A stretch of 59,083 nucleotides of DNA from a virus. Taxonomy: Duplodnaviria; Caudoviricetes. The notes beneath the pieces were generated by a model. The model made no database searches. It was given only the letters and a program-made list of their open reading frames with translations, and was not told the origin of the DNA. Location: positions 1-59,083 of IMG/VR virus record IMGVR_UViG_3300042568_000868; one strand, 5' to 3'. This document shows positions 2,702-35,686 of this stretch, in pieces; positions within the stretch are counted from its first letter, which is position 1, and each line of letters begins with the position of its first letter. The position numbers and the translations under genes were made by a program.

Positions 2702-2920
2702 TTACAGTTCTGGCAGCTCATATAATTCTAGATTAAAATGAGTTATAGCGTCTTCTTTGGTGTCGCTTTGAAAGCAGCAGCTTTCTGGGTCTCCGCAGTT
2801 ACAATTGCACTCTATTGGACAATAAAATCTTAATTCAGCTTCTAGCAAATCATATCTTTCGAGAGTAGTCTTATCTACGTATTCACCACCAGTGGCGTTT
2901 GCAAATTTCTTGTATAACAT
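2702..2920 (-). CDS. Small Cys-rich hypothetical protein
   Basis: ATG at 2920 directly after upstream gene; CPIECNCNC...CC. Confidence 0.55.
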   Translation of the reverse strand: MLYKKFANATGGEYVDKTTLERYDLLEAELRFYCPIECNCNCGDPESCCFQSDTKEDAITHFNLELYELPEL

Positions 2921-2927
2921 ATTGTTT

Positions 2928-4217
2928 TTAATTTTGAACAGTCCAACCTTTATTTGTAGCAATAGATGTATCGCAAGTTCCAGCACCAGGACATCCTGTA
3001 ATTTTAATAGCCTTGCCACTTACAGTAGGAAGTGATGTAAATAAAGCATTTAATGCAGATGCATTCATATTACAATATTGTACATCAACCTGTGGGCTTG
3101 AACCTCCGAAAGCACTTGTAGCGTTTGTCAGTATTATTCCTGTAATTGGGAGTGGAACGGTTGAGTTGCCGCCTATGCTTAATTTACTTAACTTAGCGCC
3201 GATAGTTAGTGATTGAGCTAGATTCTCACATCTATAAAATATATTTGTCCAGTTGCAATCCTGAGTTCTACTTCCCAAAAATTCAAGATTAGTAAGGTGC
3301 TTCAAATTACCACACAAATAGAACATATTTGTACAGTTAGTGTTTTTGTCATTGCCAACACCTGCTGGCAAATGCACCTCGTCTAAAGCAGTATTTGTAT
3401 CAAACATATAAGCAGTAGAGCCTGTTGAGCCCCAATCGCTTGCAGTTATATTGAACGTTCTAACCTTTCCACTATTTGATAAATAATATGTGTATGATGC
3501 AGTTGAACCTCCACTATACAGCGTATCCATTGTACCATTAATCACGCCAGTTCCATATAATGAGTATGTTCTAGATGTAGCAGAACCCATAGCAGGAAAA
3601 TTGAAATCCTCAAAACTCCCGCAATTATATGCGAAATAGTCAGAACTTGTAACGTTGCTTGCATCATAGATATTTACCTTTTTCAAAAATGGGCTTCTAA
3701 GTGGTGATACAGCAACGCCATTGCTGAACATTTGAGAGATATTAACCAATGAAGGTACATTAATTTCCGCCCATGCAACACAGCTATTTTGTTGGGTATA
3801 TTGTGCGCTTGTTTTTGCAACTTTGAAATACTTTATATCCGAACTTGCATTGTAAATGCGAACGGTGTAAGCCCAAACTTTCCACTCAGGAATCCACACA
3901 CCTAACCCGCTACCATTATTTTCTACATAAGTGTGAGATACTTGTGCGGTTAAGTTATTGCCAGCCGTTTGAGTAGTAAATGCTGTTGATACTCCACCTT
4001 CAATAACTCCATCGCCCCAATCAATAGAGTATGTTCCATCTGATGTGGTTTGAATAGCGAATCCATTTACTCCCCCATTATCAATACAGATCATCAATAT
4101 TTCACCAAGTTGAGCTTTGCCACTTATATTTGGAAAGCTATTGCCTTGATATGTTATTCCTATATTACTAATAGTTGGAACCCAGACTCCTCCTATATTT
4201 ATTTTCTGTATAGCCAT
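2928..4217 (-). CDS. Tail-associated protein with PKD-like and BspA/DUF285-like repeats (receptor-binding candidate)
   Basis: YSIDWGDG motif; repeated xxMFxxCxxL units; tail gene context. Confidence 0.6.
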   Translation of the reverse strand: MAIQKINIGGVWVPTISNIGITYQGNSFPNISGKAQLGEILMICIDNGGVNGFAIQTTSDGTYSIDWGDGVIEGGVSTAFTTQTAGNNLTAQVSHTYVENNGSGLGVWIPEWKVWAYTVRIYNASSDIKYFKVAKTSAQYTQQNSCVAWAEINVPSLVNISQMFSNGVAVSPLRSPFLKKVNIYDASNVTSSDYFAYNCGSFEDFNFPAMGSATSRTYSLYGTGVINGTMDTLYSGGSTASYTYYLSNSGKVRTFNITASDWGSTGSTAYMFDTNTALDEVHLPAGVGNDKNTNCTNMFYLCGNLKHLTNLEFLGSRTQDCNWTNIFYRCENLAQSLTIGAKLSKLSIGGNSTVPLPITGIILTNATSAFGGSSPQVDVQYCNMNASALNALFTSLPTVSGKAIKITGCPGAGTCDTSIATNKGWTVQN

Positions 4218-4218
4218 A

Positions 4219-4695
4219 TTAATTTCTATTCATTACGATTTCGTAAAATAATTCCTCGGTTGAAACCGGGCATTGTTTGTCTGTAAAATCTAATGGTATC
4301 GCCTGCAATTCTTCTATAGTTGTAGCATTTTTGATTGCTTGTATTTTTGCGTATCTCTCATCGCTTCTTTGCATAGTCCACGCAACCGCATTGGTACACT
4401 TTTCATATCCATGATTTTCAAATCCACTCCAAACTGGAGCAGGTAATACGCTATCGAAATTACTATCTATCATTGCTGTATAATTACTAGATACCATCTT
4501 GATTGCCATATCTTTCATTTCTTCCAGTGTGATCGTGCTGATTTTAATTTCGCATCTTAGAATATCTTCTATTGAAGCTCCTTCGTTATTTAAAAGAAAA
4601 TCTATTTGTTCTTCATTTAAAATAATAACGCCTTGAATATTGGACATATCAGCTTCCGTTATAGTAATTCTGTTTTTTAATATGTAGTAATTCAT
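4219..4695 (-). CDS. Tail fibre-associated hypothetical protein (chaperone-like)
   Basis: IKNATTIEELQAI pattern typical of tail fibre assembly proteins; context. Confidence 0.45.
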   Translation of the reverse strand: MNYYILKNRITITEADMSNIQGVIILNEEQIDFLLNNEGASIEDILRCEIKISTITLEEMKDMAIKMVSSNYTAMIDSNFDSVLPAPVWSGFENHGYEKCTNAVAWTMQRSDERYAKIQAIKNATTIEELQAIPLDFTDKQCPVSTEELFYEIVMNRN

Positions 4696-4702
4696 AATTT
4701 AT

Positions 4703-6091
4703 TTAAATAAATACGTTATTAATGTCATTATTGTAAGCACACCTTCCGATCGAGGCCAGTCCTATCCAATTAGAATCATTAGGTACGTTAGGAATAGGTA
4801 ATCCACTTCTTAACTTTGTTTCTGCTAAATTCCAAACCAGCCAAACCTGTGTTCCTATTTTTACTGTTGGATATACTTGCGTATCATTTCCAATGTAGCT
4901 AGCGCAAGGCGTTCCATCTGCTTGTAGTTGCTCTGAAACTGTTGCTGGGCGGACTAGACGAATCGAACAACCATATTTTACGTTTGATGGTGCAATATAT
5001 GTTTCTGCAACATTACTAAAATTTAATACTTTAACGTAATCTGTAGAAAATACATAATCTTTAATTTGAAAAAGTCCGTATGCTTTCAAATAACTAAAAC
5101 TACCATCATCTAGTCGCATTCCACCCGCTCTAATTTCCATACTAAATAAGTTGACAGCATTAGAATTAGGCGGAAGCCAATAATCACTATTAGTAGACTT
5201 CATTCTACTAAGCGGTGCAAAATTAGTCAATAGATAATTAAAATCAGCAAGTAAGGGAACGGTCCAGTCATCACTACTTGTTATACTATTGGTTCCTGAT
5301 CCTTGAGTTGCATACCAGTTATACAGATAACCATATTTCATAGTCTTCTGTACAAAGTTATACTGATAACTAGATATGAATACATTATTCATATCATTAT
5401 TATAAGCGCATCTAGCACCAAAATTTGCAGTACCCCACGTAGCATTATCTGAGATATAGGTTATATCAGTTCCACCTCTATATTTAGTCTCTGCTAAATT
5501 GCAACCAAGCCATACTTGTGTGCCAATTTTTACAGTAGGGTATTGTAGTCCATCATTACCTATATATGGATCACAGGCACTTCCATCAATTTGCAACTGT
5601 TCATTTACGGTGGCTGCACGAACCAATCTGATTGCGAGCCCCATTGATTTTCCACCAGTAGCATCACCAAATCCGCCATTAGCTCCATTGTTATATATCA
5701 TGAAGTAGTAAGTCTGTGCTGCATAATACTCCCACATACGAAATTGATATCTTAAAGAACTAAATACACCATCACCATTTTGTCTAAACCCAGATCCTCT
5801 AAAGTTTAGATTATATATATTTAAAGCTCCTACATTGCCTTCCCAATAAATAACTCCATCTTCTTTAAGCCTAGCTCCTATATTACTTTGACCACCTGCA
5901 TCATAATTAACTAATGTAGTTGTATCTCTATTTGCTACAGCTCCTTGAGGAACCGACCATCCAACGTTAGACATTGCTAGCGGAATTATACTAGCATTTC
6001 CAGTACCTTCTATCACATAGTAGTTATATAGGTATCCATATTTAACTACTGGAAGTCCTGCAGATAGACCCATGTATCTTCTTCCTACCAT
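4703..6091 (-). CDS. Protein with two tandem, circularly permuted Fib_succ_major (FISUMP)-like domains
   Basis: KYGYLYN(Y/W)Y, W.VP, G..IRLVR and YPTVKIGTQVWL..NLAETK each occur twice. Confidence 0.75.
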   Translation of the reverse strand: MVGRRYMGLSAGLPVVKYGYLYNYYVIEGTGNASIIPLAMSNVGWSVPQGAVANRDTTTLVNYDAGGQSNIGARLKEDGVIYWEGNVGALNIYNLNFRGSGFRQNGDGVFSSLRYQFRMWEYYAAQTYYFMIYNNGANGGFGDATGGKSMGLAIRLVRAATVNEQLQIDGSACDPYIGNDGLQYPTVKIGTQVWLGCNLAETKYRGGTDITYISDNATWGTANFGARCAYNNDMNNVFISSYQYNFVQKTMKYGYLYNWYATQGSGTNSITSSDDWTVPLLADFNYLLTNFAPLSRMKSTNSDYWLPPNSNAVNLFSMEIRAGGMRLDDGSFSYLKAYGLFQIKDYVFSTDYVKVLNFSNVAETYIAPSNVKYGCSIRLVRPATVSEQLQADGTPCASYIGNDTQVYPTVKIGTQVWLVWNLAETKLRSGLPIPNVPNDSNWIGLASIGRCAYNNDINNVFI

Positions 6092-9323: not shown

Positions 9324-10412
9324 TTATACTTCTAGCCAATTATATCCATCAGAGATTAGAGATATGAAAGATCTATTTGTCATTGGATCATACTGAAATC
9401 CTCCTGGAGTGTGATTCATATCTACATAAGTAACCTCGGAATATGTGCCATTTGCAGAATTTTTCAGTATTATAGTGTCAGATCCTTGGGCTGAAATCAT
9501 ATCGCCAAGTATATTTCCAAGTCCGCCTAGCTCAAAAAAGAATTTTATTTCTCTCCCTGCGGATTCTGAAGCTAAAGGGAGTGTAAGATTCACAGTATTA
9601 TGTACAAGACCTCTAGACCTTACAGAAAAGAAATTCTCTCCCTTATTTATTGAGTAGTTTTCATATGTTGAGCAGTTAACTGAATCTATATACACTACTG
9701 GAGCAGTCCAATTTCCCCATTCAAATCCATCTGGAATTACAGGAGCAGAATGATAAAGTCTATATGCGGTAGTGCCATTTGTAAAACTAGCTGTTTGCTT
9801 ATAATCAGCTACACTACCAGGAGCTGGGTTAATATCTTCTACTAATAGATTAAATAATGTAAATCCATTTATACTCCCAGACGACAATGTAACTGCGTAA
9901 CTACCAGGAGTAGTCATTGAGTCCAAGTCTGTTATTGGTATATTTATAAATGAGTCAGATAAGAACGATTGTGGAGTTTCTACTTTTTCGAATGTTCCTT
10001 CTGGGTATATACCTGCTGGAGTTGGGCCACCTGGACCTCCACTGGCAGGATAGAATTTTAATTTTCTCCTGTATATTACATCATTATCTAGTTTAACTTC
10101 TTGTATATACTCTTGATCGAATATAACTGTATCTCCTACAGAATATGTATGTAGTTCTAATAGACTATCAGATCCAAGTACTGCTTTGTGTGCTACATCT
10201 AGATTCGCAGTTTTTAGTGTAGCAAATCTAGTTCCACCATAGAAAGCATCAAGTTCTTGGTCTGTTTCTATTGTTATGTTTCGTGATAAATTAGACGCTT
10301 TTATATATTTTGTTGTTGGCACCAAGCCATCGACAACAGGTATTATAGTAGTATCAGTAGCAAGTCCTAGCTCTGTTAGCGCGCTTATTTTTTTTCCTTT
10401 TAATTGTGCCAT
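9324..10412 (-). CDS. Putative tail/virion protein
   Basis: KKISALTEL N-terminus and LTLPLA..AGREIK C-terminal motif common in fibre proteins. Confidence 0.5.
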   Translation of the reverse strand: MAQLKGKKISALTELGLATDTTIIPVVDGLVPTTKYIKASNLSRNITIETDQELDAFYGGTRFATLKTANLDVAHKAVLGSDSLLELHTYSVGDTVIFDQEYIQEVKLDNDVIYRRKLKFYPASGGPGGPTPAGIYPEGTFEKVETPQSFLSDSFINIPITDLDSMTTPGSYAVTLSSGSINGFTLFNLLVEDINPAPGSVADYKQTASFTNGTTAYRLYHSAPVIPDGFEWGNWTAPVVYIDSVNCSTYENYSINKGENFFSVRSRGLVHNTVNLTLPLASESAGREIKFFFELGGLGNILGDMISAQGSDTIILKNSANGTYSEVTYVDMNHTPGGFQYDPMTNRSFISLISDGYNWLEV

Positions 10413-30283: not shown

Positions 30284-30535
30284 ATGAACAGAATTAAACT
30301 ATTAGTAGCATTAATACTATTAATAACCTTTGCTATTAGTGCAAAGACAATATTTCCATCTGAGTATGTAGTTGAATATGATGTTCTTTATAAGAATAAA
30401 GTAATATCTACCAACAATATATTCATTGCTGAGAATCCAATCAGGAATAAAATGTACAATAGAGTTAAGCATATAGCTAAGCTTAAATACAATAAACCTG
30501 TAGATATTCATATAAATAAAATGGGCTACCAATAA
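30284..30535 (+). CDS. Small protein with signal peptide
   Basis: Hydrophobic N-terminus ending AISA. Confidence 0.6.
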   Translation: MNRIKLLVALILLITFAISAKTIFPSEYVVEYDVLYKNKVISTNNIFIAENPIRNKMYNRVKHIAKLKYNKPVDIHINKMGYQ

Positions 30536-30550
30536 CTAAATCAATTAATT

Positions 30551-30823
30551 ATGGCAAAGACTATAGTATTTAAGAAGGAATTTGAGGTGTTGCTCAAGAA
30601 ACATAAGGTTAAGACCAGATTTGTGAAAGAACTACGCAGGTATTGCAATGAAAATCAATCGCATACTGGCATACTATCTAAACGTGTTAAAGACCTAAAT
30701 AATAAAGAAAACTTTTATTTCTTCATTGCAGGAGCTTTTGTATGGAACACAGAAGGCGGTATATCTAATTTTGAAAATAGTTCATTTTGGTATAAAATAG
30801 CTGTATCTAATACAAATGGCTAA
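30551..30823 (+). CDS. Hypothetical protein, paralogue 1 of tandem trio
   Basis: MAKTI.FK.EFE..LK..K.KT.FV.ELRRYC shared with next ORF. Confidence 0.7.
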   Translation: MAKTIVFKKEFEVLLKKHKVKTRFVKELRRYCNENQSHTGILSKRVKDLNNKENFYFFIAGAFVWNTEGGISNFENSSFWYKIAVSNTNG

Positions 30824-31076
30824 GACTATATACTTTAAACCAGAGTTTGAGAAGAAGCTCAAGGAGCTTAAAATCAAAACAAAGTTTGTCAATGAACTGC
30901 GTAGGTATTGCAAGGCTACTAATAAGCACTTCATAAACAGAGCTGAATTGATAAATAAGAATCAAAGGTTCTATAGATTTCTGTTTGATGGATTCCCGTG
31001 GCATACTACTAAAGATGGATATCCTTATTGGTCAGCAATGTTTAATAAATCTTATGAATTATGGGACAAACCGTAA
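30816..31076 (+). CDS. Hypothetical protein, paralogue 2
   Basis: Similar to 30551..30823; F.W...G..YW. Confidence 0.7.
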   Translation: MAKTIYFKPEFEKKLKELKIKTKFVNELRRYCKATNKHFINRAELINKNQRFYRFLFDGFPWHTTKDGYPYWSAMFNKSYELWDKP

Positions 31077-31336
31077 TCAACCTGCCAGAAAGACACGATA
31101 TACAGCTAAAAAAGCTTCGTGTCAAAACAAAGTTCATTGAAGAGTTTAAGGCTCAAAACAAAAGAGATTACACGACACAAGAAGAAATAGATGATATTCT
31201 TAGTAGACACACAAGCATACGTGCTCTTTTAATGGTATCATTTTCGTGGTTTAACTCCATATATGGATTAAAATACTGGAAAGACATTTACAAAAAAGCA
31301 AAAGCAATGGAATGCGGTTCATTGCCTGATAACTAA
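31061..31336 (+). CDS. Hypothetical protein, paralogue 3
   Basis: LKKLRVKTKFI and FSW...GLKYW. Confidence 0.65.
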   Translation: MGQTVINLPERHDIQLKKLRVKTKFIEEFKAQNKRDYTTQEEIDDILSRHTSIRALLMVSFSWFNSIYGLKYWKDIYKKAKAMECGSLPDN

Positions 31337-31337
31337 G

Positions 31338-31504
31338 CATAGGATGACAGCCTTGGGTGAGTGCCCCTTAATCAGTCATAAAAACATAGGATAATAACCT
31401 TTGGTGAAATGCCATTAATAATTGATTAGATAAAACATGAGTTGATGACTCCGGGTGAAATGCCCCAATAAAATCAGATGAAAACTGTAGCGGTGAAATG
31501 CCGT
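31338..31504 (+). ncRNA. Array of four twin-hairpin elements
   Basis: Each unit: 3-bp stem with 7-nt loop then GG-TGAAATG-CC hairpin; compensatory stem changes among units. Confidence 0.6.
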
Positions 31505-31542
31505 ATTTACGAATGAAACGAGAGTTATCATTTGGGACTAAT

Positions 31543-31580
31543 ATGGGAGATGTGTTTTGCGGCATGTCTCCCATTGTTTT
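31543..31580 (+). terminator. Terminator-like hairpin after the array
   Basis: ATGGGAGATGTG...CATGTCTCCCAT followed by TGTTTT. Confidence 0.55.
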
Positions 31581-31600
31581 ATCTACTAACAAATATAGTT

Positions 31601-31870
31601 ATGGAAAAAGATAAACCAACAGAATACAATCCTACACAACAAGAGATTGAAGACTTTATTATCCATAAAAATGGGTATTCAAAGAAAGAAGAAAGATTGG
31701 GTGTGGGTAGAAATATCAATGATAAAACAAGAGGTAAACTCATCCACAGAGAAGGGAAAAGAGAAGAAGTCTTGTATGAGAATAAGCCTTGGGCTCTATT
31801 GCAGTCATTGAAAAAGGGGTTAATTAAACAAGGTTATAAAAGTTCTAATCTAATAATAACATATGTTTAA
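31601..31870 (+). CDS. Hypothetical protein
   Basis: ATG at 31601 after A-rich leader. Confidence 0.55.
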   Translation: MEKDKPTEYNPTQQEIEDFIIHKNGYSKKEERLGVGRNINDKTRGKLIHREGKREEVLYENKPWALLQSLKKGLIKQGYKSSNLIITYV

Positions 31871-32147
31871 AGATAAGAAATTCTCAAAGGAATCAGTTAT
31901 ATACACATTAATAGTAATACTAGTGTCTATATTGATTGGTTTAGCTATTGGATTGCAGAGCAACAAAGTTGGTAATCCAAAGGTCTATTATATGACCTAC
32001 GATGTTTATGCTGATTCTATTTATGAAGATGTTTGTACAGGTGTAAAAGCAAATTCATATCAAGAAGCCAGAGAAAAGATTCTCAAGATTGAGAAAATGA
32101 GATTAAATGCTGATTCTATTATTGAGAAGAAGATAATGGAAGAATAG
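31863..32147 (+). CDS. Small single-TM protein
   Basis: N-terminal hydrophobic helix. Confidence 0.6.
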   Translation: MFKDKKFSKESVIYTLIVILVSILIGLAIGLQSNKVGNPKVYYMTYDVYADSIYEDVCTGVKANSYQEAREKILKIEKMRLNADSIIEKKIMEE

Positions 32148-32152
32148 TATAA

Positions 32153-32223
32153 GGCCCTGTCGTCTATGGGTAGGACGCCACACTTTCAGCGTGGAAAACG
32201 AAGTTCGAGTCTTCGTGGGGCTA
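32153..32223 (+). tRNA. tRNA-Glu(TTC)
   Basis: Cloverleaf: GGCCCTG/TGGGGCT acceptor, D arm, CT-TTC-AG loop, CGAAG-TTCGAGT-CTTCG T arm; several G-U pairs and one anticodon-stem mismatch. Confidence 0.8.
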
Positions 32224-32234
32224 CAATAAAACAA

Positions 32235-33220
32235 AAATACTCTAAGATTGCCGCGCGGGCTACAAATGAGCAAGAACAATATTTGCAAGAGTATTTACTG
32301 TTTTTAGCAGGACATGTAGTGGTGTGAAACCACTTTTTCACTATGTCTTGCTTTTTAAATAAACCAATCTCAGATTGAAGCAACAGATAATCTAAGGACG
32401 TAAAAAATTCTGAGAATAGCCTCTTCGTAATGAATGTAGCTCAGGGAGACGATTATCGACCTAATGCAGTAGGTCAGTTTGTTAGATGTAGTAAAATCCA
32501 GTGAAAAACAGCGGTATTTATAATCCGAAATTAATAAGTATTACTCCACTACAAGGACTGAGATTGGTTTTAAATACAGTCGGAAAACATTGACACGACT
32601 TTAAATGAGAATACTAACCCTGAATACAGGGTGATTGAAATCAAGATAAACGTAGCTGCCGCGAAAGCAATCTGTAGAAATACACAGTCATAAATTACGA
32701 ATTCTTCAATGGGGCCAGAATGAGAGAGTTCGGGCATTTCAATCGGAGTAATCCTAGATGTGTTGTTTCCTTGAGAAAGGAATGATTGAATATATGGAAG
32801 CAGGACTACCTATATCAACACAAATGAGTTCTCAGCAAAGATGATTAATCCAACGGAGGAAAGCATAGTAATATGTGAAGGACACTCAAAAGGGATGCAG
32901 ATAACCAAAGTCTTAGAAAGGTCTGTAATCATCGTGACCCTATTATCTTATTAGTTTGTGCCTATAAAAACAAGGCTGTATAACTGTTCTAATAGGATAT
33001 TAGGGTGCTAAAAACAAATATATAATAATTGATGCATCTAAGGGGTCTCCGATGTAATATTCGGGGGCAAGTCTAACCCAAAGCCTCTCATTATTGTATT
33101 AATATCTATATTTTATATCAAACGGCAAGGAATCGGGTCCGATATAAATTACTCATCCATATATAAAGTATAGATACAACAGTGATAGGGTTGCATACCA
33201 TAAGAACTGCACCCTATCCA
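32235..33220 (+). ncRNA. Cluster of structured non-coding domains (~1 kb)
   Basis: No credible ORF; successive domains each closed by long stems, e.g. 32361-32373/32558-32570 (13 bp perfect). Confidence 0.6.
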
Positions 33221-33229
33221 TTTTAACAG

Positions 33230-33301
33230 GTCACCTACTTCAGTTGATGATAGCCAATTGAAGCCACGGAAGAAAGGAGTTCGAATCTCTAAGGTGGCAC
33301 A
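33230..33301 (+). ncRNA. tRNA-like element without anticodon arm
   Basis: GTCACCT/AGGTGGC acceptor + ACA, GGAG-TTCGAAT-CTCT T arm, one long hairpin replacing D and anticodon arms. Confidence 0.55.
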
Positions 33302-33349
33302 AACATTTTTATTCTAATCAATTGTTTAACACTCAAAATTATCAAAATT

Positions 33350-33613
33350 ATGGGAACAAGTACCTTTACATCGTTTTTGCTACAATTCAAGTTTGCTCCG
33401 AATGCAAATGTAGCTAAATTATTGAAATCTGGAACCGCAACAGATGCTGAACTCGCTCAGGCAGTGAAAACTACCAAGCAGTACAAAGAAAACAAAGACC
33501 TTCAAACTCAAGTAGCAGTGGTTATTGCCAAAGCAACAGAACCAGTTGAAGTGAAAAAAGTTGCAGAACAACCAAAGTCTACGTCCACCCGTGCTGGTGA
33601 GCCAAGACGTTAA
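33350..33613 (+). CDS. Hypothetical Ala/Lys-rich protein
   Basis: ORF with A-rich leader, followed by hairpin. Confidence 0.6.
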   Translation: MGTSTFTSFLLQFKFAPNANVAKLLKSGTATDAELAQAVKTTKQYKENKDLQTQVAVVIAKATEPVEVKKVAEQPKSTSTRAGEPRR

Positions 33614-33696
33614 TTGTTAAAACAGAAATAAAAAGAAATGCATCCTTTCTATTAGATTGGGTGTGTTTCTTTGTTAATTAATCAATAATTAATAAA

Positions 33697-34938
33697 ATGA
33701 CAAATTGGGAAAAATCATGCGTTGAAGCACTAGTAGCTAGTCCAGCAGCATTCGCTTTATTTAAAGCTAAACAAAAGAATAAAAAGCATGTTGACCAATA
33801 CTTGAATAAAGTGTGGCCATACAAGATAGAAAAAGAATTCAAAAGTGGAGATGACAACAGAAATATTATCCCTAAATTTAAAGCTGCAACATCATGTCTT
33901 GCGGAAGGAAGGATAGGAGAGTATGTAATATATCTTAAACCAAGAATCAGAAAAGAACAATTAATATCAATAATAAATAGGGCAAAAAAAATAACTCCGC
34001 CAAAAGTGGAGATACATAATGCCTCATTTAAAATCATACTTCACTCAAACATTGGTGACACAGAGGCATTTAATGTATACGCATTCAAAGATGAATGTCC
34101 TATGACGTCAATGGAGTATAGAATATCGAGATTGGATGGTGAATTTGTTGAAAAAATAGTATTCTCAACAAATAGAATGTATGATTCTAGCTTAACTCAT
34201 CAAGAAATAAGCAAAAGAATAAAGCCAGTTCTTAGTCATTTCCTTAATCAATTTAGTGCAAGCTCATTATCTGGTCGCTGTAACTACAAAAGGGAATACA
34301 AAGGTCAAAATGTTGGCATTGAGATAGAGTACGATGGACAATGGCAAAAGTATTTGCATAGACATCTAAACAAATCTAAAAATGCAATAAGCTTTAATTC
34401 TGGGTTAGATGGTGGAGAACAAAACCTTAAAGGTGACAAATACCACCTAATACCGAGACTAAGAGAAAATAGACTGAGAATAAACGGGTCAAGAGGTCTT
34501 AATGCTTTATATACGTTATTAATCAGTATGAAGAATGATGGATGTACAATGACTAATAAGTCAGGAATGCATTATCATATTGATTTGACTAAAAAGAAAG
34601 GAGCCGAAGATGATTCTAATTATTCATCAAAAGTGGATGAAATTAGAAAGGATTTGTATGATTTGGCAAAGAAAGACTGGGAAACAATAAGTGCAATAAG
34701 AAATATATTTGAATTAGACTATATTGATCCATCTCACTTTGTTAGAGAAATAAAGTATCCAACAGAGTTCCGTACAATGGAATGGAGAATGGGAAGTCAA
34801 TCATTAAACTTCACCAAAATAACAATTCAAATACTATTTTCAATTCACATGTCAAATGCAGTATTTTCAAAAGAAAAAAAGATTGATATTGAATATGTAA
34901 AATTCCTATCGTCTTTAATAACTAAAATTAATCTCTAA
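33697..34938 (+). CDS. Putative amidoligase (glutamine synthetase-like COOH-NH2 ligase fold)
   Basis: VGIEIEY, SGMHYHID, TMEWR motifs. Confidence 0.7.
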   Translation: MTNWEKSCVEALVASPAAFALFKAKQKNKKHVDQYLNKVWPYKIEKEFKSGDDNRNIIPKFKAATSCLAEGRIGEYVIYLKPRIRKEQLISIINRAKKITPPKVEIHNASFKIILHSNIGDTEAFNVYAFKDECPMTSMEYRISRLDGEFVEKIVFSTNRMYDSSLTHQEISKRIKPVLSHFLNQFSASSLSGRCNYKREYKGQNVGIEIEYDGQWQKYLHRHLNKSKNAISFNSGLDGGEQNLKGDKYHLIPRLRENRLRINGSRGLNALYTLLISMKNDGCTMTNKSGMHYHIDLTKKKGAEDDSNYSSKVDEIRKDLYDLAKKDWETISAIRNIFELDYIDPSHFVREIKYPTEFRTMEWRMGSQSLNFTKITIQILFSIHMSNAVFSKEKKIDIEYVKFLSSLITKINL

Positions 34939-35340
34939 ATATAAAACAACTGAATTTCTTAATCTGTGCGTAAAACAATGCGATTTGTTTCGATGGAAAG
35001 ACGAGGTGCGGTTAGATTCTATTGCAAAAAGCCGAGATGGTATCAAAGGCAAAAGTACTTAGTAAGAATAATATATATGAGAGTGTTATTCTGTCGGGGT
35101 TTACCAGACTACCGGAAAAGTCAATATTGGTACAGATATGTAGCCAATCTGATTGTGATATTAGCAATCAACTTTTATATGAATGTACAATAGTATAAGA
35201 GAGAGATTAATTTTAAACCTGATGGCTGGAGCGAAACCAGATAGGGAATCATGGCAAACCATGGGAGTCAGTAAGCTTAGAAGAAACGAAGCCTCGTAAT
35301 GTTATGCGAGTATAGCGTGGGGTGGTTCCACGACTGACAA
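34923..35340 (+). ncRNA. Structured non-coding domains
   Basis: 14-bp perfect stem 34923-34936/35202-35215 enclosing several hairpins; further hairpins to 35340. Confidence 0.45.
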
Positions 35341-35368
35341 CAATTATTTATTATTAATTTAACAATCA

Positions 35369-35686
35369 ATGTTTATGAATTTAAAAAATCCTATTGAAAG
35401 ACTTGGTGTAATTATTCTTGTTTTTGCTGCAATATTCTCCCTTGCAGGAATCGGATATGGCCTTATCGAAGAATCACGAAAAGAACATGTCAAGCCAGAA
35501 ACAAAAGATGTACGTAATAATACATTCAAATACGTATTCAAAGATGAAACATATTGTGAAGTATTTGTAATTGCATCTGATTTGCCTGAAGATTCTGTAG
35601 AGAGTATAGTCCGCAAACTATATCCAGATGAATCTGAGATTAAATTAATAAACAAAATTGAAGTGCCAACTACTTCAGTGGAATAA
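35369..35686 (+). CDS. Small single-TM protein
   Basis: N-terminal hydrophobic helix. Confidence 0.6.
   Translation: MFMNLKNPIERLGVIILVFAAIFSLAGIGYGLIEESRKEHVKPETKDVRNNTFKYVFKDETYCEVFVIASDLPEDSVESIVRKLYPDESEIKLINKIEVPTTSVE

Follow-up and report, generated by a model that had tools for sequence, protein, structure and literature searches.

A family of large folded phage RNAs and its member in a structured, non-coding interval beside a phage tRNA-Glu gene

Few natural RNAs combine large size with extensive conserved structure, and past cases have been ribozymes, ribonucleoprotein cores and, lately, RNA-only cages. Smaller stable RNAs are made by phage T4, whose RNAC and RNAD (~120-140 nt, much smaller than the RNAs described here) belong to the T4 tRNA gene cluster and are matured along with the tRNAs. 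Also called stable RNA species 1 and 2, both are phage-encoded late RNAs whose function is still unknown, as portrayed in the passages of PMC9697503 that deal with them. The closest described systems are GOLLD (RF02032) and ROOL (RF03087), which, according to the parts of bioRxiv 10.1101/2024.12.08.627333 devoted to them, are large, elaborately folded, abundant RNAs of phages and prophages, commonly encoded close to tRNA islands; they are of unknown function and do without any obligatory protein partner. IMG/VR has also been mined for structured RNAs by Fremin et al. (PMC10690425), who list 10,006 candidates, tRNA-like ones included.

Here we describe a structured interval in a 59,083-nt stretch of phage DNA (the window; IMG/VR record IMGVR_UViG_3300042568_000868) and show that its largest component, the RNA at 32577-33014, belongs to a family of large folded phage RNAs that is both widespread and uncatalogued. 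The family resembles GOLLD in being conserved towards its 3' end and more variable towards its 5' end (the GOLLD layout being that outlined in sections of bioRxiv 10.1101/2024.12.08.627333). It differs from both GOLLD and ROOL in sequence and secondary structure, in length (227-520 nt, with a median of 344 among parsed loci, versus ~580 nt for ROOL and >800 nt for GOLLD), and in its occurrence as found so far, limited to contigs of uncultured aquatic phages and a crAss-like phage of Cellulophaga.

At E≤10 the GOLLD model matched nothing in the 59-kb contig, and cmscan found no match to it either. The ROOL model likewise gave none at E≤10, a search that is weak when taken alone because the control genomes were negative too; no ROOL match appears in the cmscan of the RNA. 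No Rfam 15 family matched the large RNA in a permissive scan of 32560-33020, and such scans of seven other family members returned nothing credible. A description of the family was not found in the literature searched: the main text of Fremin et al., which draws on the same source and the same type of comparative method, mentions no large tRNA- or tmRNA-associated RNA, while its supplementary candidate lists may hold pieces of the family (PMC10690425).

The interval downstream of tRNA-Glu

The first-pass annotation of the window had pictured about 1.1 kb without a credible gene, composed of consecutive self-closed domains on the plus strand and bracketed by tRNA-Glu and a tRNA mimic. This picture was borne out. 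Across 32225-33349 the longest ORF, among those of ≥30 aa, does not exceed 65 aa and none is conserved; every stem that had been listed was found again by complementarity check, by reading or by folding; and the mimic proved to be a conserved tRNA-like element. The parts outside the large RNA and this element are:

32153-32224, + strand: tRNA-Glu (anticodon UUC), called by ARAGORN; the 5' bracket of the island
32225-32356, + strand: module 1, two hairpins
32235-43/32288-96, + strand: hairpin a of module 1 (9 nt, 100% complementary)
32306-15/32343-52, + strand: hairpin b of module 1 (AGCAGGACAT/ATGTCTTGCT, read from the sequence and folded), with an inner hairpin at 32318-34 and a U run at 32352-56
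32361-32570, + strand: module 2, a domain of ~210 nt
32361-73/32558-70, + strand: perfect 13-bp closing stem of module 2 (13 nt, 100% complementary)
33015-33229, + strand: module 4, three hairpins at ~33020-33099, 33103-33176 and 33184-33218
33103-18/33161-76, + strand: stem in module 4 (16 nt, 94% complementary)
33184-91/33211-18, + strand: stem in module 4 (8 nt, 100% complementary)

When folding energies were compared with those of dinucleotide shuffles, 32225-32356 gave a z of -4.0 and 33015-33230 a z of -3.1 (1 of 200 shuffles equally stable in each case), and the large-RNA segment 32574-33016 gave -2.5 (0 of 100). The module 2 domain is ordinary by energy alone, since 32355-32576 reached only z -1.4, with 21 of 200 shuffles equally stable. 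The plus-strand preference that had been read from G-U pairs is upheld by the family helices, which are rich in such pairs (20 UG and 7 GU of 70 at one P2 pair), and all 96 of the 96 tRNA or tmRNA genes within 3 kb of family members share the strand of the RNA.

With the Rfam tRNA model, tRNA-Glu scores 44.2 bits against a cut-off of 29. A cmscan of the whole window at gathering cut-offs, which had been suggested as a check, yielded two tRNAs as its only matches; a permissive Rfam scan of 31900-33700 returned nothing credible, and neither ARAGORN nor Rfam found a tmRNA (RF00023/RF04321) in the window. PHROGs and Pfam gave no matches for the window's neighbouring ORFs.

Conservation of the domains, which the first-pass annotation had made its test, holds for the large RNA, modules 1 and 2 and the tRNA-like element; for module 4 no relatives were found. 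The block formed by tRNA-Glu and module 1 is identical to locus L192 at 182 of 218 positions (83%); as read from the alignment, module 1 is ~90% and the tRNA ~75% identical. Hairpin a carries one compensatory pair, and hairpin b is kept in L192 through compensatory changes, with three changed-but-kept pairs. Module 2 matches L192 over 143 nt at 80% identity, plus its 3' closing strand, and in two pairs of the closing stem both partners differ (C-G replaced by U-A each time). In exact-pattern scans of IMG/VR, a 24-mer of module 1 and a 21-mer of module 2 occurred in L192 and L193 only; these two are identical there, and the conservation of modules 1 and 2 thus extends to one other lineage, besides which blastn of 32225-32576 against the gathered loci gave only chance-level matches. 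A MITE was considered as the origin of the 13-bp inverted repeat and rejected: there are no further copies in the window, nor in IMG/VR beyond L192/L193, and the stem covaries. For module 4, blastn gave only chance-level matches in 1.66 Mb of gathered loci and no relatives in 50,697 phage records, among which the sole match of the interval was the phi14:2 core of the large RNA.

Syntenic relatives were few in a protein-anchored search (one viral locus and two metagenome loci), and modules have been gained and lost independently among them. In L101 only ~115 nt separate tRNA-Glu from the tRNA-like element; L192 holds modules 1 and 2 plus an ORF and lacks the large RNA (a 138-aa ORF lies between the two modules); and in L100 ORFs occupy the place of the modules. 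Phage tRNA islands can therefore carry several independent structured-RNA modules, as well as tRNA look-alikes that are overlooked in standard annotation or wrongly entered as tiny ORFs.

The large RNA and its family

In the large RNA, H1, P2-P7 and a loop-to-strand pseudoknot are arranged around a nearly invariant strand:

32577-33014, + strand: large structured RNA, ~437 nt, matched by family models R1 and R2
32579-99, + strand: H1 hairpin with conserved loop AAACAUUGA, present in the minimum-energy fold
32600-13, + strand: J1/2
32614-16/32755-57, + strand: outer pairs of P2
32617-32 and 32633-41/32736-44, + strand: hairpin and stem (9 nt, 100% complementary) of a window-specific insertion of ~138 nt enclosed by P2
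32745-54, + strand: conserved AGUAAU-loop hairpin enclosed by P2
32759-65/32816-22, + strand: P3, a long-range helix
32766-83, + strand: P4, with loop UUGAGAAA
32784-32815, + strand: P5, a variable hairpin
32816-38, + strand: nearly invariant strand, AAUGAGUUCUCAGCAAG
32771-77 with 32829-35, + strand: pseudoknot formed by the P4 loop
32840-47/32926-33, + strand: P6 (8 nt, 100% complementary)
32934-37, + strand: GUGA
32938-54/32989-33005, + strand: P7, with A and AA bulges
end at ~33014, + strand: tail UGCUAAA

Three of the stems previously listed as separate domains fall within this molecule: the TGAGAA/TTCTCA domain is P4 with the pseudoknot, GATGATTA/TAATCATC is P6 and 32937-54/32989-33006 is P7. 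They are joined by P3 and matched by the models as a unit, and the claim that the eight domains are separate small RNAs therefore does not stand. The minimum-energy fold of 32574-33016 gives back H1, P3, P4, P5, P6 and P7. Neither model had the window sequence in its seed alignment. R2, the 5' core (the AGUAAU loop of P2, P3 and the P4 loop), matches 32729-32849 with 79.9 bits; R1, the 3' module (invariant strand, P6, GUGA, P7 and UGCUAA tail), matches 32816-33014 with 66.4 bits (E 9.5e-16), its single match at E≤1 in the whole 59-kb window. H1 with its conserved loop lies upstream of J1/2, as in the family. A loop-loop contact of H1 (CAUUG) with P2 (UAAUG) was considered and rejected: the P2 loop variants AGAGAU, UGAAAG and UGUGAG are unmatched by changes in H1.

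The family is abundant in viral metagenomes, where two pattern scans of IMG/VR detected it in over 150 contig stretches; its core is nearly invariant whichever genes neighbour it, and it is without an Rfam match. At least 96 IMG/VR stretches contain an exact 23-mer from the core, and at least 120 contain a second, independent 15-mer anchor. Core and 3' motifs could be parsed in 145 loci, 128 of which also have the H1 motif, and R1 recovers 63 and R2 61 of the 91 loci added later. In the 5' core (70 sequences) 93.7% of cells are paired (shuffles, 77.9%; slid controls, 38-48%), and 18 of 23 pairs show changes on both sides; P3 alone is 99.8% paired, and all seven of its pairs covary. In the 3' module (42 sequences) the corresponding values are 89.5% and 11 of 20 pairs, a pairing level reached by 0 of 500 shuffles. 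Across 72 model-aligned matches, 94.9% of cells are paired. The pseudoknot is 94-96% paired, with both-side changes in just 2 of its 7 pairs, in one sequence each.

Contigs bearing the RNA range from 13 kb to 373 kb, and some loci have a tandem second copy. As far as searched, the family appears restricted to phages: the 23-mer occurs in just three MAG contigs among genomes of 185,579 species, and in a sample of 151 genomes from one class R1 matched two, the seed MAG and, weakly at 28 bits, one other. When 892 flanking ORFs from 123 loci were clustered, no consistent protein neighbour emerged, the best cluster being present at 18 of the 123 loci. Among 123 distinct members, 51 have a tRNA or tmRNA within 3 kb and only 27 within 500 nt, so that tRNA-linked processing is not a general maturation route for the family. 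Of 108 members, 8 carry a T-loop motif in the 60 nt that precede the RNA (~0.9% expected).

The only cultured carrier found is the crAss-like Cellulophaga phage phi14:2; all others are uncultured aquatic phage contigs. Its copy (L001 ~2800-3253, equivalent to KC821624 ~2909-3362) sits between g004 (2194-2904) and g006 (4602-4901). For this intergenic space, the pertinent part of Drobysheva et al. (bioRxiv 10.1101/2020.03.07.982082) describes high, early and stable rightward transcription and two lncRNAs; it reports transcription alone and, in that part, names no structure, family or relatives. Because its coordinates fall within the transcribed space, the phi14:2 family member is very probably one of the two lncRNAs. 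The other is probably an unannotated tmRNA, for which we find a candidate at L001 3922-4393, equivalent to KC821624 ~4031-4502 and ~670 nt from the large RNA (46 bits against a cut-off of 47). As far as the cited portions of these accounts go, the phi14:2 lncRNAs are early and persistent, whereas T4 RNAC and RNAD are late, and the phi14:2 locus ranks among the most highly transcribed. A family member at such a locus in a cultured phage makes the two unexplained lncRNAs directly testable.

The tRNA-like element at the 3' end

The tRNA mimic of the first-pass annotation is real, and it is conserved in seven contigs (L100/L195, L101, L102, L192, L193 and L194), in six of which tRNA-Glu(UUC) lies upstream. 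It consists of:

33230-33299, + strand: tRNA-like element, D arm absent
33230-36/33292-98, + strand: acceptor
33239-46/33255-62, + strand: long hairpin with conserved 8-nt loop AUGAUAGC
13 nt, + strand: linker, including GG
33276-79/33287-90, + strand: T arm, loop UUCGAAU
33299, + strand: discriminator A; CCA is not encoded

The long hairpin is paired in 85.7% of cells, with 5 of 7 pairs changed on both sides, and relatives have either AUGAUAGC or AUGAGAGC as its loop. In the T arm, whose loop UUCGAAU is invariant, 91.7% of stem cells are paired. As read from the alignment, the acceptor (6-7 bp) covaries: GUCACCU/AGGUGGC, GCCAAC/GUUGGC and GCCACU/AGUGGC. The element thus has the acceptor and canonical T loop of a tRNA and lacks the D arm and 7-nt anticodon loop. 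ARAGORN makes no tRNA call at 33230-33299, and the Rfam tRNA model has no match there (E≤10) or in L101 and L102 (E≤1). A possible second tRNA-like element after the mimic in L102 and L192 was set aside: Rfam sees neither a tmRNA nor a tRNA.

A comparable arrangement is known from mascRNA of MALAT1, a tRNA-like 3'-end processing signal. By analogy with mascRNA and viral tRNA-like structures, which likewise combine an acceptor with a canonical T loop without being decoding tRNAs, acceptor and T arm may in principle suffice for recognition by RNase P and RNase Z, separating an upstream stable RNA from downstream sequence. The phage element differs from mascRNA in lacking a D arm, in its conserved 8-nt loop and in its position ~50 nt upstream of an ORF (87 aa, 33350-33613).

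Transcription and alternative explanations

In four of four lake-water RNA libraries, assembled contigs cover 32244-32969 piecewise, taking in modules 1 and 2 (32244-32591) and the large-RNA part 32589-32969; such contigs are blind to single transcripts, strand, level and ends, and DNA carry-over is possible. Within 30500-35500, parts without contig cover (for example 33005-33338 and 33673-34841) are uninformative either way.

The contigs over modules 1 and 2 are compatible with the original interpretation of the interval as a polycistronic operon that encodes about eight independent small RNAs, released singly by tRNA-punctuation processing, as are the independent comings and goings of modules among relatives, the tRNA and tRNA-like element flanking the island and the two modules that out-fold their shuffles most clearly (z -4.0 and -3.1). 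Yet three of the domains are helices of a single RNA, tied together by the covarying P3 and recognised as a whole by both models, module 2 is of ordinary stability (z -1.4), and the punctuation itself is missing: ARAGORN and the permissive Rfam scan find no tRNA-like structure between the modules. We regard such an operon as rather unlikely. It is more doubtful still that the large RNA acts in cis, as a leader of adjacent tRNA or tmRNA genes or a scaffold for their processing. A tmRNA begins 13-92 nt past the RNA in L006, L014, L065, L094 and L184, and tRNAs begin 4-60 nt past it in L075, L077, L103, L122 and L171; the nearby genes are all on the same strand, and the flanks are enriched in T-loop motifs. 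However, ARAGORN calls neither a tRNA nor a tmRNA within 3 kb of 72 of the 123 members (by default it misses insert-bearing tRNAs that are evident by eye), the next tRNA-like element is ~215 nt away in the window and the tmRNA of phi14:2 ~670 nt away, and the core stays nearly invariant regardless of its neighbours.

About equally improbable is a mobile or selfish element or ribozyme (intron-like, homing-associated or self-processing) spreading among phage tRNA islands. The patchy occurrence of the RNA in syntenic loci (present in the window, absent from L100, L101, L102 and L192), the span of its carrier contigs, its tandem second copies, its large, invariant junction and pseudoknot core, and the homing endonuclease genes near some loci, such as an HNH ORF that lies within the split tRNA-Glu gene of L100, would all suit such an element. 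Against this, the Rfam intron and ribozyme models (group I, group II and small self-cleaving) had no match at E≤10 over the RNA, and a 12.8-bit match to group-II-D1D4-1 (RF01998), the only one for that model and elsewhere in the window, was discarded. The RNA lies between genes and not within one, and therefore has no exons to rejoin; no endonuclease or other protein consistently accompanies it; and cleavage or splice junctions were not seen in the RNA contigs, which are weak evidence here. That the region instead encodes small proteins, with incidental hairpins, is hardly credible. ORFs do exist at 32841-32954 (+ strand, 37 aa), 32570-32737 (- strand, 55 aa) and 32810-32932 (- strand, 40 aa), and GenBank KC821624 formerly annotated three tiny minus-strand ORFs over the phi14:2 copy; but RefSeq deleted those three on 15 June 2020, transcription of phi14:2 runs rightward, antiparallel to them, in the published passages on this locus, and family members vary by hairpin-sized insertions and compensatory pairs, not by codon-like substitution.

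The explanation that we favour, with confidence somewhat above even for all of it together, mechanism included, is that the interval forms a plus-strand mosaic of stable-RNA genes, an island in the DNA of a crAss-like lake phage. The island would be transcribed rightward together with the adjacent plus-strand genes, and host tRNA-maturation enzymes would cut at tRNA-Glu and at the tRNA-like element, RNase P generating 5' ends and RNase Z-type enzymes 3' ends, thereby freeing the block of RNA from the downstream message. The large RNA would then build up as a stable trans-acting molecule. Its invariant junction and pseudoknot core might bind a conserved partner, most likely one from the world of translation and tRNA; alternatively, the RNA might self-assemble, as GOLLD and ROOL do.

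More tentatively, and with doubt prevailing, the family may constitute a further class of large ornate phage RNA beside GOLLD and ROOL: one of aquatic phages including Crassvirales, expressed early and at a very high level with no dedicated protein, which would act through RNA-only assembly or through a ribozyme-like core engaging the host translation and tRNA machinery, with the D-arm-less element as a phage counterpart of the mascRNA type. For testing this class, phi14:2 on Cellulophaga baltica is an existing cultured system.

The end of module 1 looks terminator-like because the U run at 32352-56 comes after hairpin b. The inner hairpin with its T-rich tail appears in a listing of terminator-like structures, and the full stem is then followed by UUUUU. 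Judging from its sequence and conservation, this hairpin with its U run (32306-56) could split the island into separate transcription units; one assembled RNA-library contig (record 1 of run X4) spans hairpin b, covering 32250-32591.

A single large RNA in the gene-free interval

Every ORF between the tRNA-Glu gene and an 87-aa ORF is ≤65 aa and unconserved, in agreement with the first-pass annotation, which saw no credible gene there. The stems that it named are all present in the sequence (hairpin b from sequence reading and folding). Compared with dinucleotide-shuffled sequences, folding is more stable in three of the four sub-intervals (z = -4.0, -3.1 and -2.5); the domain closed by a 13-bp stem (module 2) reaches only z = -1.4.

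Features of the interval (window positions, + strand)
32153-32224: tRNA-Glu(UUC), 5' bracket of the interval
32225-32356: module 1
32361-32570: module 2, with its 13-bp closing stem
32577-33014: large structured RNA, ~437 nt
33015-33229: module 4, three hairpins
33230-33299: tRNA-like element without a D arm (the mimic)
33350-33613: 87-aa ORF, first gene 3' of the interval

The proposal that these stems constitute an operon of many small RNAs found partial support. Three of the supposedly separate beads, TGAGAA/TTCTCA, GATGATTA/TAATCATC and 32937-54/32989-33006, are the P4/pseudoknot, P6 and P7 of one large RNA, which is the interval's centrepiece. A blastn search of phage genomes gave a sole match, between window 32737-32838 and Cellulophaga phage phi14:2, in which blocks of identity are split by a hairpin bearing compensatory changes. 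An exact 23-mer from this core occurs in 96 IMG/VR stretches among the matches listed, on contigs of 13 to 373 kb, and a common architecture was derived by reading the flanks of these stretches.

Architecture of the large RNA, 5' to 3'
H1: hairpin with a conserved loop (32579-99 in the window)
Optional inserted stem: between H1 and J1/2
J1/2: between the inserted stem and P2
P2: hairpin with an AGUAAU loop; extra hairpins inserted in some members, the window included
P3: long-range helix enclosing P4 and P5
P4: hairpin with loop UUGAGAAA, inside P3
P5: variable hairpin, inside P3
Single strand after P3: nearly invariant
P6: variable, followed by GUGA
P7: long and bulged, followed by the tail UGCUAA

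A second scan, anchored on P7 and independent of the 23-mer, returned at least 120 stretches; some are chance hits in coding DNA, and many are variants with P3 changed on both strands (e.g. ACGUGAG/CUCACGU and CAUGCAG/CUGCAUG). Overall, 145 loci parse among the matches listed (227-520 nt, median 344).

In the 3' module (42 sequences), 89.5% of cells are paired and 11 of 20 pairs show changes on both sides; none of 500 shuffles attains this level, and slid controls give 35-47%. The 5' core (70 sequences) is 93.7% paired, with shuffles at 77.9% and slid controls at 38-48%; both-side changes occur in 18 of 23 pairs, and P3 is paired in 99.8% of cells; among model-aligned matches (n = 72), 94.9% of cells are paired. 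The window, which contributed to neither covariance model, is matched at 32729-32849 (5' core, model R2, 79.9 bits) and 32816-33014 (3' module, model R1, 66.4 bits); taken with H1, these matches place the RNA at ~32577-33014. Sequence comparison also suggests that the P4 loop pairs with the invariant strand as a pseudoknot (94-96% paired); this is plausible and not proven because just two both-side changes occur, one of them in locus L131 (loop UUGAAAAA, partner UUUUCA).

Two 5'-core matches each were present in L105, L106, L109, L137, L143, L146, L151, L180 and L189, usually one canonical copy and, within a few hundred bases of it, one divergent copy, the latter with P3 replaced (e.g. by AAUGG/CCAUU) and P5 missing. 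Contig G002 carries two 3'-module matches 8 kb apart. In the window, an 11-nt segment of module 2 (32537-47) shows 91% complementarity with the AGUAAU hairpin of P2 (32745-55), and 8 nt of module 4's last hairpin (33209-16) are complementary to the conserved 3' terminus of the large RNA (33001-08); this could reflect chance or pairing between modules.

Novelty, expression and genomic setting

The large RNA belongs to a family of large, structured phage RNAs that is new and widespread and has one expressed member in a cultured phage. A comparison with Rfam 15, which the first-pass annotation had suggested as a check, found no family matching it; a GOLLD model search was negative, and a ROOL model search gave no match, as did its control. 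The core 23-mer occurs in just three MAG contigs across the searched genomes of 185,579 species, a search of 151 genomes drawn from a single class with model R1 recovered only its seed MAG and a further match of 28 bits, and of the 50,697 phage records (cultured or deposited) phi14:2 alone carries the RNA.

The phi14:2 copy (~2800-3253 of locus L001, KC821624 ~2909-3362) lies between g004 and g006, where RefSeq deleted eight tiny ORFs in 2020. A preprint on the phi14:2 transcriptome reports rightward transcription of the g004-g005 and g005-g006 junctions above most coding genes, beginning at the earliest time sampled and not declining afterwards (bioRxiv 10.1101/2020.03.07.982082). The second published phi14:2 long non-coding RNA is probably an unannotated tmRNA. 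A tmRNA lies at L001 3922-4393 (KC821624 ~4031-4502; ARAGORN tag GSSVQKLAMVA; Rfam score 46 bits, cut-off 47, E = 4.6e-16) and is annotated in neither record.

Assembled contigs from four of four lake-water RNA libraries cover window 32244-32969 piecewise, a measure of presence in the libraries and not of ends, strand or level. Two lake-water DNA runs contain nearly the whole window and may be where it came from; other lake-water runs contain parts. The window (an IMG/VR contig of 59 kb, 57% complete by CheckV) matches crAss-type PHROGs in its portal and terminase, its large terminase shares 61-69% identity with crAss-like phage terminases, and its genes run on the - strand to ~28.5 kb and on the + strand beyond. 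A second ORF-poor gap of ~430 nt (34939-35368), 3' of a 413-aa gene, had no Rfam match at E≤5; contigs from three of four RNA libraries cover 34944-35264.

A tRNA or tmRNA lies within 3 kb of 51 of 123 distinct members, and 96 of 96 such genes share the RNA's strand; in ten members one starts ≤100 nt downstream. Both flanks are enriched in T-loop motifs, and no neighbouring protein family is consistent among the family loci. Phage tRNA islands seem to contain further unannotated RNA modules. A tmRNA also lies 3' of the large RNA in L006, L014, L022, L057, L065, L094 and L184. Immediately upstream of H1, at least two further recurrent hairpin-like elements are conserved in differing phage subsets (e.g. 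L006, L028, L030, L055, L065, L070; L014, L018, L039, L056, L058, L094, L095). Several upstream tRNAs have long insertions missed by default ARAGORN (e.g. L060).

The tRNA-like element and exchange of modules

The tRNA mimic noted at the interval's end proved to be a conserved element, present on seven contigs in six distinct versions. Its acceptor, of 6-7 bp (5 bp in L194, the most divergent version), covaries, as does its long hairpin, which has a constant 8-nt loop, AUGAKAGC. All versions have a GG-containing linker and an invariant T loop, and lack a D arm and an encoded CCA; ARAGORN and the Rfam tRNA model rejected the element as a tRNA. U/G variation at the would-be anticodon position argues against a role in decoding. 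The mimic may instead be a signal for processing or recognition by tRNA enzymes. Every mimic is followed by the 87-aa ORF or by a second odd tRNA-like element. The latter, directly 3' in L102 (~3250-3560) and L192 (~10040-10350), has an 8-bp acceptor and a 5-bp T arm, its ends ~250-300 nt apart, and was called tRNA or tmRNA by neither ARAGORN nor Rfam.

The mimic pattern also led to the interval's closest relative, L192/L193, ordered tRNA-Glu, module 1 homologue, 138-aa ORF, module 2 homologue and mimic; searches with R1 and R2 found no large RNA there. Module 1 is ~90% identical and tRNA-Glu ~75% (read from the alignment, 182/218 overall), and both module 1 hairpins have pairs that are changed yet still paired. 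Module 2 is 80% identical, and its 13-bp closing stem contains two compensatory pairs. Module 4 had no relatives among the fetched loci. The tRNA-Glu and mimic are separated by only ~115 nt in L101 and ~230 nt in L102; in L100 the tRNA-Glu is interrupted by an HNH gene and two ORFs are present. These differing contents therefore identify the tRNA-Glu-to-mimic interval as a module-swapping hot spot.

L101 also has a weak permuted tmRNA match at 3839-4103 (RF04321, 39.5 bits, below the cut-off of 47), ~1.8 kb downstream of its 413-aa gene homologue. In L100 (1867-2544) the tRNA-Glu is apparently split into a 5' part that corresponds to window 32153-77 and a 3' part (2515-2544) that corresponds to window 32198-32227; the ~620 nt between them include a 156-aa HNH endonuclease ORF (PF01844, 29.3 bits). 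ARAGORN places a tRNA-Glu of 91 nt at 1867-1957, and the split may represent an intron or the insertion of a homing endonuclease into a phage tRNA gene.
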